From positions 5,456,001-5,520,000 of the forward strand of contig JAGIQG010000040.1 of NCBI GenBank assembly GCA_024679065.1: a stretch of 64,000 nt of DNA, in the 5' to 3' direction. Source of the stretch: Sphyrna mokarran (Eukaryota). Under the pieces are notes generated by a model. That model searched no databases. It was not told the origin of the DNA and saw only the letters and a program-made list of their open reading frames with translations. The position numbers were made by a program, and so were the translations under genes. Below, piece after piece: positions 23,142 to 51,347 of this stretch; the stretch's first letter is position 1, and every line of letters begins with the position of its first letter.

Positions 23142-23209
23142 GGTTTTTGTGATGGCAATAACTGCTGTGTCACCCACGTATCACACTGAGACACAGTTAC
23201 ACAAATACT
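23142..23209 (-). other. IgH diversity segment D2 (coding 23170-23181, atacgtgggtga) with 12/12 RSS
   Basis: Plus strand ggtttttgt-12-tgctgtg-[12 nt]-cacactg-12-acaaatact. Confidence 0.92.
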
Positions 23210-23519
23210 AAGGCAGAATGTTAACTGTAAAATACAGAGATTTGAATTTACTGCTATTTCAAAAGTCTATTTCAATGTCGTTAAGAGTAGGTCAGTGAGA
23301 TATTTCAATTTTTTTACTGGTCATGGTATTGATAAATGGGGTTAGAAACTTTTACACTCTCTGTGCACATTCAGCATGTAAAACAATAACAATAAAGTTG
23401 AAGTATTTTATATCTTCTAAAAAAAAATGCTGCTTCTACCTATTATTTCGTTGAACCCTCATTTCGTTTGGCATTCGGCAGTGGTATTGATCACAAATTT
23501 AAGCAAAATCGTTCTCCGA

Positions 23520-23598
23520 GATTTCTGTATGAGAATGTCGCTATGCTGAGCATTGTGACCCCCATAGTATCACAGTGACACAGGAACGCACAAAAACT
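23520..23598 (-). other. IgH diversity segment D1 (coding 23558-23570, atactatgggggt) with 5' 12-RSS and 3' 22-RSS
   Basis: Plus strand gatttctgt-22-cattgtg-[13 nt]-cacagtg-12-acaaaaact. Confidence 0.92.
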
Positions 23599-23943
23599 GC
23601 ACTCACTGTGTTCAGTATCGCCGCTCAATATTCACTTCAAATGGACCATTAGTTCTACTACAATTTAAAATATAGGCAACTGTTTATATAACACTATTTA
23701 TCAAAAATGTTAAAACGAGCAATATATCCAGTGCTGTATTTGCTGAAACTACAGTAAATATAAAGTCAGTGAAAAACTCATCCCATTAATATTGGTAATT
23801 TTGTTAAATTTTACTATTAAATGCTTTTTTTGTTACTTAAAAAAAAGATTATGGTTTGGTTCTGACCACTGTCGTTAACATTACGTTTAAAACAGATATT
23901 CACCTTCAGGTTATGATGGAAGTTGCTGAATTCCCTGTCGAGC

Positions 23944-23982
23944 TGTTCTTGTCCGGGTGCAGCCCTAACTCTTCTCGCTGTG
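23944..23982 (-). other. VH 23-RSS
   Basis: cacagcg-23bp-acaagaaca. Confidence 0.9.
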
Positions 23983-24287
23983 ATCTCTTGCACAGTAATA
24001 GATGGCGGTGTCTTCGGTCTCCAGGCTCGTCATCTCCAAAGCGAAGATGTCGTTTGAAGTGTCTTTGGACGCAATAAATCTATTCCTAACCGATGAGGCG
24101 TAGAAGTTGTTGGATGAAGTTAGGTAGTTAACCAGCCACTCCAAACCCTGCCCGGGAACCTGCCGGATCCAGCCCATCCAGTCGTTGTCAAGATTGAGGC
24201 CACTGGTTTTACAGGTCAGTTTCAGGGACCCGCTGAAACGCACGATCTCTACCTTTGGCTGAGTCAATACAGCCTCCGACTGAACAC
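23983..24287 (-). CDS. IGHV: IgM VH exon
   Basis: tag acceptor. [53 protein letters not shown]; open frame. Confidence 0.96.
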
Positions 24288-24416
24288 CTATACAAATATA
24301 TCAAAAAGCCCGAGGATTAATCCCGGTGAAATGATTGCTGTTTTTGAAACATTTCAGGGATAGACGAACAGGGAGACAGTGCCAGTGAGAGATTTGGACA
24401 ATAAAATACTACTCAC

Positions 24417-24462
24417 CAGATAAGAAAGTCAACAACAAACTGAGAGGAACCGCCGACCTCAT
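24417..24462 (-). CDS. IGHV: IgM leader exon
   Basis: MRSAVPLSLLLTFLS G|gtgag. Confidence 0.92.
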
Positions 24463-48201: not shown

Positions 48202-48675
48202 ATGTGTCCCCTGTGTGTTTTACTGATAATAATGGCCACGCTGCCCGGTGAGTCCGACCTCAAACCCTCAGTGTCTGTTTCATGGGTTATATTTGCTCAT
48301 TGATTTCTCACTCATTCCACATTTTGTTGCAGGAATCAATGGCCAAGATTCAGTTTCCCAGCCGCCTGAATTAACGGTTCAGGAAGGATTGAACGTTACA
48401 GTGAATTGTAATTACACAACACAAATTGCTAGCCCATATCTCTTCTGGTATATCCAGTATCCCGGGGAAGCTCTGCGATATTTACTGAAGAGATATGGCA
48501 CGAGTGGCGAAGGAAGGTCTCCAGATTTCCCTGACCGGTTTTCCGCTGATTTGGACAAGGAGAAGGAAACAGTTCCTTTAAATATCACCGGGGTCCGTGT
48601 CTCTGACTCTGCCGTGTATTACTGTGCGCTGAACCCCACACTGTTACAGAAGCACATTCAGCCCGTACAAAAATC
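48202..48675 (+). CDS. TRAV: Intact TCR alpha/delta V segment (leader 48202-48247, V exon 48333-48636, 23-RSS 48637-48675)
   Basis: MCPLCVLLIIMATLP G|gtgag. QDSVSQP..VTVNCNY..LFWYIQYP..DSAVYYCALNP. cacactg-23-acaaaaatc. Confidence 0.92.
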
Positions 48676-48834
48676 TGCACAGGGACTCTCACCTCCTCTT
48701 ACTGAATCAGATCTGTGATCTAGATTGTGAACTGTTAATATAAGCAAAACCATGGCAAAAACAAAGAGTTCGCTCAAATGCTCTCTTTCCATTGTGCTCA
48801 ATGTGTCATTCTATATAAATTCTAATTTCACAGA

Positions 48835-48905
48835 ACCCGGCTGAATCAATGGTCCAGGAAGTATTAAACGTTATAGTGAATTGTAATTACACAACAAAAA
48901 ACGCG
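48835..48905 (+). pseudogene. Short FR1 fragment of the 48202 V family
   Basis: VQEVLNVIVNCNYTTKNA. Confidence 0.7.
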
Positions 48906-48937
48906 TGCCCGCTATTCCCTTCGTCACTCCGCAGCAG

Positions 48938-50304
48938 TGTTTTTGTACGAGGCTCTGGCTCCTTTCACAATGTAATTCACCGCGCTGTCCGACAGCTCAC
49001 AGATGGTGAAATTTCCCTCATTTTTAGAACATAGAACATAGAACATAGAACATTACAGCACAGAACAGGCCCTTCGGCCTTCGATGTTGTGCCGACCAAA
49101 ATAAAATGCAATGCCCCTCCAAACTAAACCATTCCCTTCTCTTCCATATACTTATCAATTAACCTCTTAAACGCCACCAAACTTGGCGCATCTACAACAG
49201 CTGCAGGCAGGGCATTCCACTCCCTAATCACTCTTTGAGTAAAGAACCTACCTCTGATATCCGTCCTATAACTCATACCCCTTAATTTAAAGCTGTGTCC
49301 CCTCGTGCTAGCTTTCTCCATCCTAGGAAAAAGGCTATCACTGTCCACCCTATCTAAACCTCTAATCATCTTATATGCTTCAATAAGATCCCCTCTTAGC
49401 CGCCTCCTTTCTAACGAAAACAACCTCAAATCCTTCAACCTCTCTTCATAGGACCTGCCCTCCATACCAGGCAACATCCTGGTAAACCTCCTCTGTACCC
49501 TCTCCAATGCCTCCACATCTTTCTTATAATGTGGCGACCAGAACTGCACACAATACTCCAAGTGCGGCCGCACTAGAGTTTTGTACAGATGCAACATGAT
49601 GCTGCGGCTCCTAAATTCAATCCCCCTACCAATAAAAGCTAAGACTCCATATGCCTTCTTAACAACTTTATCCACTTGACTGCCTACTTTCAGGGATCTA
49701 TTGACACATACACCAAGATCCTTCTGTTCCTCAACACTATTAAGAGCCCTACCATTAGCCCTATACTCTACACATTTATTGTTCCTGCCAAAGTGCATTA
49801 CCTCACACTTTTCCACATTAAAGAAAATGTGGACACTTTCGAAATGTGAACACTTTCGAAGTGTTCATTGATGCAAAATAAAAACCCGATTCCCGTGCCT
49901 TCTGCTCTGAAATCATCTCTGTAGTTAGGGGGTGGAAGTCAAGAATTTGGCGGCTTTATCCCGGTACGGCGATGTAGCTGTGAAGAAAATGCACTGTGTG
50001 TGGTCGATTAGCTGAAGTCAATGGATATCGATTCTCTTTATCGCTACAACTGGATCCTGGGAGACAGAAACTGCACCAATCAACCTAAAAAAGAATAGAA
50101 ATACAAACTTAACTTTTTATCATCACTTTGTTGGGAAAAAAGGTGCTCAGGGTAACTGAATACATTACAAATAGAGGGAAAACAATTAAAAGGAAAGATT
50201 TTTATCTCAGTATCTCGAGCAATGCTGTGGATTTTGCAGTTTTGGAATTTACCAGTTAAGAAAGTTGCAGTTATGATGAATGTGTAAAAACTAACAGACG
50301 GCAT
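48938..50304 (-). pseudogene. TCR V pseudogene split by a CR1 insertion
   Basis: Leader MPSVSFYTFIITATFLT G|gtaaa (50253-50304). Decayed exon from 50084 (AVSVSQDP). FR3 remnant ELSDSAVNY and nonamer acaaaaaca at 48938-48946 lie beyond the LINE. Confidence 0.7.
49025..49820 (-). mobile_element. CR1-type LINE 3' fragment (young)
   Basis: 230-aa RT C-terminal ORF; (catagaa)n tail at 49025-49050. Confidence 0.93.
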
Positions 50305-50873
50305 TCTCGCAGAGCAGGATCTGAACTCAGTGAGTTCAAACCGTTTTAGTTCAGAAGATGTTGAGTAATATCCGGCCTCACTGGCGATTGGTTCATTCCA
50401 CACAGAGCCAGCAGGTGGCACCCAATCAGCTGACGGCTTCTTTGTCCTACATTTAATCCAATCAGCTCAGAGTGTCTTTGTTCTCCAATGCATGACGTCA
50501 GAGCGAGGAGCAGGAGCCATTTGAATCTGTTCTCAGAACAATGAACTGGACTCGAAGAAGCTACACGACCGAATGGTGATATCGCTGTCTTTGACAAAGT
50601 GAGGGCATGAAAACAGTTGGTCATTTTCAGGAGTTAATCTTTGAGATAGGACGCAGATGGATTTTGGGCTAACGTTGTGATAACAGCGGCAGAGTTTTCC
50701 ATTCCAAGATTTGCTCCAAACAGCTATAAAAATGGAATTTATATAGAATTTATGTACCATGGAAAAGTAGCATTCGGGCTAACTCTTCGTTATACTATTG
50801 TTTGTTTTTATTAACAGTTCACAATCTAGGTCACAGATCTGATTCAGTGAGACGAGGTGAGAGTCCCTGTGCA

Positions 50874-51347
50874 GGTTTTTGTACGGGTTGAATGTGCTTC
50901 TGTAACAGTGTGGGGTCGAGCGCACAGTGATACACGGCAGAGTCAGAGACACGGACCCCGGTGATAGTTAAAGGAACTGTTTTCTTGTGCTTGTCCAAAT
51001 CGGCAGAAAACCGGTCAGCAAAATCTGGAGACCTTCCTTCGCCACTCGTGCCATATCTCTTCACTAAATATCTTGGAGCTTCGCCGGGATACTGGATGAA
51101 CCAGAAGAGATATGGACTAGCATTTTTTGTTGTGTAATTACAATTCACTGTAACGTTCAATCCTTCCTGAACCGTTAATTCAGGCGGCTGGGAAACTGAA
51201 TCTTGACCATTGATTCCTGCAACAAAATATAGAACGTTTGAGAAATCAATAAGCAAATATAACCCATGAAAAACACACTGAGGATTTGAGGTCAGACTCA
51301 CCGGGCAGCGTGGCCATTATTATCAGCAAAACACACAGGGGACACAT
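50874..51347 (-). CDS. TRAV: TCR alpha/delta V segment, inverted paralog of the 48202 V (leader 51302-51347, V exon 50913-51216, 23-RSS 50874-50912)
   Basis: Open frame DSAVYHCALDP; cacactg-23-acaaaaacc; canonical splice sites. Confidence 0.9.

Follow-up and report, generated by a model that had tools for sequence, protein, structure and literature searches.

An IgM minicluster inside the TCR alpha/delta V array of the hammerhead Sphyrna mokarran and the probable direction of its Ig-TCR traffic

Ig-TCR mixing in sharks and the hammerhead case

Trans-rearrangement of VH to TCRdelta, and the TAILV genes, were reportedly described in the nurse shark by Criscitiello in 2010 and by Deiss in 2019. 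Both are also treated in PMC12227049, PMC5931798 and PMC6795676. The paper on the elasmobranch antigen-receptor complex (AgRC; Flajnik et al. 2025, PMC12227049) describes the joining of VH to TCRdelta as common in sharks and places TCR V exons in the gaps between IgH clusters; the traffic discussed in the sections considered here is VH to TCRdelta only. Its Table S1 contains a catshark TAILV before TCRD. For the great white shark, it gives an IgM model ("pseudo?") that ends at 14,950,866 and a TCR V that starts at 14,979,261, both on the minus strand, the same geometry as in the hammerhead, at 28 kb. In both accounts, IgM miniclusters and TCR alpha/delta V exons are intermingled; the layout itself is already known from other sharks, and the present cluster is one more, well-resolved case. 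In comparison to that paper, an intact cluster is mapped here to D-J-Cdelta by its recombination signals (RSS), and two canonical delta units, two alpha-like units and many extra Cdelta lie on one contig. As in the nurse shark, an IgH V with a 23-RSS is located upstream of a same-strand Ddelta, and a VH-like V is found directly before Ddelta. Unlike the nurse shark trans-rearrangement, the hammerhead arrangement is known from genome sequence, and the original prediction proposed the reverse direction, i.e., TCR V domains on mu chains.

A likeness to such chains exists in the origin of IgNAR, in which, according to PMC4279169 and PMC12227049, a TCR-locus V came to stand on an Ig heavy constant region. 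However, that V works without a light chain, has its own D and J and would have been fixed in the germline by transfer, whereas the proposed TCR V-mu chains would be formed in somatic cells, by joins between DH and TCR Vs of the conventional kind. If true, they would be a somatic counterpart, in living sharks, of the event from which IgNAR presumably arose; if they are real and also selected, they would supply antibodies with V domains from a new source and would serve as a model of how IgNAR and multi-V IgH loci originated. In human inv(14) lymphomas, RAG joins segments of IgH and TCR alpha in keeping with the 12/23 rule, and a reciprocal Valpha-JH join has reportedly been described. Those joins are rare, pathological and extend across a chromosome arm, whereas the segments considered here are 17 to 27 kb apart in normal germline. 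A literature search, with most subscription papers outside its coverage, did not turn up any account of a shark Cmu that carries a TCR V.

An intact IgM minicluster within a TCR V array

The window, a stretch of 64,000 nucleotides, corresponds to positions 5,456,001 to 5,520,000 of a Sphyrna mokarran contig on which the relatives of its TCR Vs spread from 3.36 to 6.28 Mb; the IgM minicluster is embedded in this TCR alpha/delta V array of roughly 3 Mb. All of its segments are encoded on the minus strand. The VH (23944-24462; leader 24462-24417, exon 24287-23983) ends in a 23-RSS, CACAGCG-23-ACAAGAACA, and is separated from D1 by 411 bp. D1 (23520-23598, coding 23570-23558) has a 5' 12-RSS and a 3' 22-RSS, D2 (23142-23209, coding 23181-23170) a 12-RSS on each side, and JH (22730-22816, coding 22777-22730) a 23-RSS. 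Hence, the signals are ordered 23 / 12-22 / 12-12 / 23, and VH, D1, D2 and JH fall within about 2 kb (24462-22730), the layout of an elasmobranch IgM minicluster. The constant region (12219-15148) consists of Cmu1 (15148-14849; 84% to Triakis IgM), Cmu2 (14640-14329), Cmu3 (13420-13112) and Cmu4 with the secretory tail (12610-12219), all in open frame with GT-AG splice sites, and is followed by membrane exons (9019-9290; TM1 9290-9163, TM2 9027-9019) that are likewise open. With four Cmu exons, secretory tail and TM exons all in open frame, the IgM is intact.

Contigs of run X1, presumed to be RNA, matched the Cmu splice joints and, at a likeness of at least 85%, bridged VH to JH (via N letters) and JH to Cmu1, joints that may stem from this cluster or from another; two contigs had zero differences from 13549-14358. 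The comparison covered 11500-25000 (loose ends, 6/103), an interval devoid of TCR Vs in which TCR V-JH joins were therefore undetectable. At 80% likeness, no run X1 contig matched the TCR V at 50874, but such blanks may be false and are not evidence.

Around the cluster, traces of duplication are found. A decayed VH fragment on the minus strand (31745-31889; 68% to the VH over 145 nt, with an in-frame stop) is the relic of a duplicated VH plus its 5' flank. Two TCR V 3' stubs with RSS stand back-to-back at 58188-58395, the center of an inverted duplication of about 55.4 to 61.2 kb, and an orphan IgM TM exon lies as duplication debris at 5,527.6 kb of the contig. This debris, together with an adjoining cluster that ends after Cmu3, would fit an IgM cluster that is a passive passenger, put into the V array by duplication and with its VH and D-J outside all cross-locus joining; the dedicated VH-type genes beside each Ddelta could then supply all VH-delta chains. 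We consider this unlikely, since joins of IgM/IgW V to TCRdelta are common in sharks and are put down to proximity (PMC12227049), and since the VH of the cluster can reach Ddelta by deletion over 99 kb.

TCR V genes and the geometry of joining

The TCR alpha/delta-type V at 50874-51347 on the minus strand is intact, with its ATG at 51347, a leader (51347-51302) with GT donor, an open exon (51216-50913) with AG acceptor and an RSS at 50912-50874 of the form CACACTG-23-ACAAAAACC. It matches the V-set and falls outside the VH clade in a tree in which nine VH-type rows form a clade (98/96) and all 19 TCR Vs lie outside, with a long-branch warning on one row. The three intact Vs on the plus strand (ATG at 40145, 43340 and 48202) are open and spliceable: 48202-48675 (23-RSS at 48637) is an inverted duplicate of the 50874 V (92%), 43340-44149 has its 23-RSS at 44111, and 40145-40649 (23-RSS at 40611) is closest to the cluster, 17,040 bp from D1. 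The fifth TCR V of the window, on the plus strand downstream of Cmu (792-1689) and overlooked in the original prediction as was the VH relic, is a pseudogene that has kept an open V exon and a 23-RSS at 1651 but has lost leader donor and acceptor. Thus, 4 of the 5 full-length TCR Vs in the window have a split leader, an open Cys-Trp-Cys exon and a 3' 23-RSS. A PDB search with the TCR V did not tell TCR alpha V apart from light-chain V, and neither the PDB searches nor the Atlas, which gave only C1-set, returned type names for the TCR constant or V domains.

As predicted, the 23-RSS of the 50874 V faces the 12-RSS of D1 (heptamer at 23571, 27,341 bp off) and of D2 (23182) on the same strand, so that a deletional join would obey the 12/23 rule; the plus-strand Vs, which also carry their 23-RSS, would have to join by inversion. 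In total, four intact TCR Vs with 23-RSS are located 17 to 27 kb from the D1 12-RSS. The signals exceed chance: 9 RSS in the window have at most two mismatches, whereas 30 shuffles gave 0.1 on average and never more than 1, and 15 have at most three mismatches compared to 1.6. Furthermore, the open TCR Vs at 5,366 to 5,580 kb, the interval within which TCR V signals were read, divide into 9 on the plus and 10 on the minus strand, indicating that inversion is normal for the array.

In a literal sense, it is also true that the TCR V nonamers are nearer to consensus than that of the VH. However, the VH nonamer ACAAGAACA is shared by 13 of the 20 unjoined VH examined (consensus in 0/20) and by 11 of 12 VH at 8.7 to 10.3 Mb, and ACAAAAAC(C/T) is the nonamer of 17 of the 19 open TCR Vs at 5,366 to 5,580 kb. 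Both nonamers are the norm of their V families, and the weaker VH nonamer was therefore rejected as an argument in favor of the TCR Vs. Neither a signal advantage nor a layout specific to this cluster was found: for a cluster inside a TCR V array upstream of TCRdelta, 12/23 compatibility is the default. The VH is at least 40-fold nearer to D1 than the closest TCR V (411 bp versus 17,040 bp).

Probable direction of the traffic

The TCR V array sits upstream of TCR D/J-C units. Downstream of the IgM cluster by 99 kb and on the same strand is a D-J-C unit, probably TCRdelta, that owns a VH-like V; at 5,381 to 5,359 kb on the minus strand, its D carries 12/23 signals, its J number five, and its C, which has a TM exon, is 54% identical to a catshark model that, judged by its description, is presumably the IgWV-TCRD entry of Table S1 (PMC12227049). 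A second C with an array of many J is found at about 4,455 to 4,379 kb, and we call the many-J units alpha-like from their architecture. A second canonical Ddelta is located at 3,852 kb. The 5,381-kb D is preceded, at 8.1 kb, by a lone VH-type gene with a perfect 23-RSS, and the 3,852-kb D, at 19 kb, by a VH-D1 that lacks D2, JH and Cmu; such lone VH-type genes ahead of TCRdelta Ds point to traffic from VH to TCRdelta. The VH of the minicluster itself has the geometry of a donor, since its 23-RSS is 98,970 bp from the Ddelta 12-RSS, on the same strand and in deletional orientation.

The relics thus point the opposite way to the mirror image of VH-TCRdelta chains that had been proposed. All seven embedded clusters with a JH have kept an open VH with its RSS, VH-less D-J-Cmu acceptors amounting to 0/7, and in the two germline-joined IgH examined a VH was used in both and a TCR V in neither. 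The sample comprised 22 IgH V regions of this contig, which has at least three more. Among 17 database proteins with Cmu1, the 10 that bear a V are all VH-type and none has a TCR V, in a sample that could miss rare chains; since only 3 of the 10 are without a contig and seemingly cDNA-derived, the protein test is a weak one. A search for longer proteins with the 50874 V was uninformative, its one match among 297 candidates being an unrelated rodent model.

Could shark B cells nevertheless join the flanking TCR Vs to D-J-Cmu, so that the minicluster becomes a multi-V unit for antibodies with TCR V domains? In favor, an intact D-J-Cmu has four intact Vs with good RSS in its vicinity, and the upstream TCR V is nearer here (17 kb from D1) than in any other of the seven embedded clusters, the other six having none within about 18 kb upstream of VH. 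A precedent is provided by IgNAR, for which a NAR-TCR V is thought to have entered an IgW cluster (PMC4279169, PMC12227049). A TCR Valpha placed on the heavy constant region of an Ig has, moreover, reportedly been secreted with a light chain in an engineered construct. Against this stand the generic nature of the RSS advantage, the VH retained in the embedded clusters and used in the germline-joined IgH, the VH-type mu proteins, and the finding that shark B cells rearrange few IgH, and these locally (PMC2435157). The 50874 V argues in the same direction, since its FR2, whose motifs have interface roles, is light-chain-like (EAPRYL) and is without the VH motif GLEW. On balance, we regard B-cell use of the flanking Vs as highly improbable. 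The possibility of TCR V-mu chains stands as far as geometry goes, but this leeway is generic, and the surrounding TCR alpha/delta locus accounts for the Vs; TCR V-capped antibodies are allowed by the joining signals and otherwise hypothetical, and the multi-V unit is unsupported. It is just as improbable that embedded IgM clusters in general yield, in shark B cells, mu chains with a conventional TCR alpha/delta V domain at the tip.

Instead, we propose, with a probability of about 75%, an IgM minicluster within a shark TCR alpha/delta V array whose TCR Vs likely serve the TCRdelta D or the TCR J arrays, while IgM likely uses its own VH and cross-traffic, if any, is likely to go from VH to TCRdelta. 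We infer the V destinations and the VH-Ddelta joining from the observed anatomy, signals, distances and flanking units. In our model, only the 2-kb VH-D-D-JH block would open in B cells and join locally, whereas in thymocytes the V array would recombine over long distances. A deletional join of the 50874 V to Ddelta, over 126 kb, would remove the IgM cluster from the allele, joining of the plus-strand Vs would invert it, and the VH of the cluster would be one more 23-RSS V for Ddelta. TCR V-to-DH joins would be rare by-products at most.

By-product joins in thymocyte DNA, with both signal sets open to RAG and no useful mu chain as a result, are plausible. They are compatible with the model and differ from it in join frequency only. 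The signals are 12/23-legal at 17 to 27 kb, normal human lymphocytes contain interlocus hybrids (PMC2191748), and nurse-shark thymocytes partially rearrange most IgH without Ig transcripts (PMC2435157), so that cells in which TCR Vs are used have open DH signals as well. However, no junction was seen, the VH is by far the nearer partner of D1, and IgH transcripts were not detected in those thymocytes, and we therefore hold this view tentatively, at somewhat less than even odds. Of 97 partial rearrangements in the nurse shark, all stayed inside the minilocus except possibly one, but the PCR assays were VH-anchored (PMC2435157), and TCR V-DH joins are invisible to them; if TCR V-mu chains exist, they would have escaped the VH-primed assays on which the "within-cluster only" rule is based. 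With an intact IgM, TCR Vs at 17 to 27 kb and a Ddelta at 99 kb, the locus is a site to ask why shark Ig-TCR mixing seems one-way.

Beyond the window, the genome has 13 TCRdelta constant exons, and the distal ones examined are self-contained NAR-TCR clusters (5/5), which offer a stronger lead.

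The IgM minicluster and its TCR V neighbors

The IgM minicluster lies entirely on the minus strand: the VH (24462-23983 in the window) and the JH (22777-22730) have open frames, D1 and D2 between them are recognized by their RSS pattern, and Cmu1-4 with the secretory and membrane exons have open frames and canonical splice sites. In the window signal scan, the RSS spacers are 23 (VH), 12/22 (D1), 12/12 (D2), and 23 (JH), and nine RSSs with at most two mismatches were found, versus 0.1 in shuffles. The VH is only 411 bp from D1. Contigs of X1, a sequencing run that we guess to be RNA, span VH to JH with six distinct junction sequences shown, and they also span mu splice sites; they show ordinary mu joining in the IgM gene family and are no test of chimeras. 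The secretory tail (12219-12280) is a variant ending in which DIS replaces the NIS sequon and the last residues differ. Two of the 11 other tails seen end similarly, one of them likewise with DIS, and such tails form a subgroup that may polymerize differently.

Upstream of the minicluster are four intact TCR-type Vs, three on the plus strand (40145, 43340, and 48202) and one on the minus strand (51347-50874); in a fifth TCR V (792-1689), both splice sites of the leader are gone. The minus-strand V is oriented toward D1 and D2, 27 kb away, and joining of the plus-strand Vs would be by inversion. The original prediction, which proposed joining of these Vs to IgH D-J-Cmu to give mu chains with TCR V domains and a multi-V unit, described segments, strands, and signals accurately. 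Further V-like 3' ends, degenerate and with remnants of RSSs, were seen at 4560-4800 (minus), 38100-38200 (plus), and 63750-63860 (plus). At the center of a ~6-kb inverted duplication (55360-61203; arms ~90 to 95% alike) lie two V 3' stubs that face outward. A second inverted duplication, formed by the V pair 48202/50874, recurs at 5,281, 5,409, and 6,262 kb of the contig.

The surrounding TCR alpha/delta locus

In this genome of 2.77 Gb, whose nearest named proteins are from houndsharks, the window occupies 5,456,001-5,520,000 of its contig. Relatives of the TCR Vs span 3.36 to 6.28 Mb of the contig, and a J-motif search revealed four J arrays. In the array nearest the window (5,381-5,359 kb, minus strand), a D carrying 12 and 23 signals (Ddelta) is accompanied by five J, one C exon, and one TM exon. 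This C shares 54% identity with a catshark model, whose description matches that of the entry labeled IgWV-TCRD in Table S1 of PMC12227049, and 75 to 79% identity with Mustelus models, most of them with NAR-TCR-like Vs; we read the unit as putative TCRdelta. For the many-J units at 4.38-4.46 and 3.07-3.13 Mb, the tentative assignment to TCR alpha is based on architecture. With two canonical delta units (D-J-C; 3,852-3,873 and 5,359-5,381 kb) and two alpha-like units (3,074-3,130 and 4,379-4,462 kb; C exons 52% alike), this is a duplicated TCR alpha/delta locus. Given the J arrays and V relatives around the window, the IgM cluster therefore lies inside a TCR V array. Ddelta is 98,970 bp away from the window VH and 125,900 bp away from the 50874 V, and the orientation of each V allows a deletional join.

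A D-like element heads each alpha-like J array (4,461,981 and 3,129,551); both copies keep a strong Ddelta-like 5' 12-RSS and a 3' signal with a spacer of ~15 bp, and they are perhaps relic Ds or deletion acceptors. An orphan IgM TM exon (5,527,599-5,527,723, minus strand) is 88% identical to that of the window, and the 52 kb beyond it yielded no match to Cmu or VH; it is the remnant of an IgM cluster deleted from the V array.

Joining geometry and direction of V traffic

The argument that geometry and RSS strength single out this cluster fails. The nonamer ACAAAAAC(C/T) is present in 17 of the 19 open TCR Vs at 5,366-5,580 kb (9 plus, 10 minus). We compared 22 IgH V regions (20 clusters, the window, and an orphan at 3,832 kb; 20 unjoined), a set that omits contigs C1082, C535, and C969 and at least three on the window's contig; ACAAGAACA is the nonamer in 13 of the 20 unjoined VHs (11 of 12 at 8.7-10.3 Mb) and the consensus in none. 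Hence, the nonamer of the window VH is the working norm of its family. Seven IgM clusters with JH lie inside the TCR V span, and the 12/23 argument therefore holds equally for all seven. One point favors the original prediction: at the window cluster, the closest TCR V upstream is 17,040 bp from D1, nearer than at any of the other six, where none was found within ~18 kb upstream.

Supply of D-J-Cmu by TCR Vs might be expected to leave clusters that have D-J-Cmu but no longer a VH. No such cluster was found among the seven, all of which retain an open VH with RSS. The reverse relic, a VH-type V before a TCRdelta D, was found twice. One, with a perfect RSS, lies 8.1 kb ahead of the D at 5,381 kb and falls in the VH clade of the tree (VH profile, 126.6 bits; TCR profile, 63.2 bits); the other is a VH-D1 without D2, JH, and Cmu, 19 kb ahead of the D at 3,852 kb. 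Both germline-joined IgH genes use VH. One (7,405 kb) is an open VDJ, and the other (9,418 kb) is a V that is partly joined and contains a stop. Among 17 database proteins with Cmu1, a V is present in 10; all 10, mostly gene models, are VH-type. At 5,154 kb, an IgM cluster carries Cmu1-3; no match to Cmu4 or TM was found in the stretch examined (5,165-5,175 kb).

PMC2435157 reports 97 partial rearrangements that, apart from one possible exception, are confined to the minilocus; it also reports that thymocytes carry partial IgH rearrangements without transcripts. The primers described there were placed in VH or the VH leader intron and in JH, so the assay is blind to TCR V-DH joins. Such joins may arise as by-products in thymocyte DNA, a tentative suggestion to which we give somewhat less than an even chance, but they would likely be silent or without a light chain. 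We consider a selected repertoire of TCR V-mu chains very improbable; a shark TCR V-mu chain was not found in the literature searched, within the limits of that library.

Beside the observed parts, signals, distances, and relics, we place a model with a probability of roughly three in four. In B cells, VH, D1, D2, and JH would be joined locally. In thymocytes, the V array would be joined over long range to Ddelta and Jalpha, with the IgM cluster deleted or inverted; joining of the 50874 V to Ddelta would excise it from that allele. Thymocytes may also employ the cluster's VH as a delta V. The window feature itself is real, correctly read, and a further instance of an already published layout.

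Multiplied TCRdelta-type constant exons

The genome as assembled, possibly with assembly duplicates, has 13 TCRdelta-type constant exons versus 2 of alpha type. Ten of the 13 are on the window's contig, with further copies on C1271, C47, and C180; the 12 others are 78 to 83% identical to the copy near the window and stop-free. Of eight distal copies on the contig (10.43-12.31 Mb), five were examined, and all five are self-contained units of a NAR V with D/J block, a supporting V, its own J, and its own Cdelta. PMC12227049 describes a translocon organization for TCR alpha/delta. TCRdelta in such Ig-like miniclusters may be undescribed. In one distal unit, the supporting V continues directly into a Ddelta-type 23-RSS, as if V and D were germline joined; in another, it retains its own RSS. 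Mustelus gene models have the order NAR V-V-Cdelta on several contigs.
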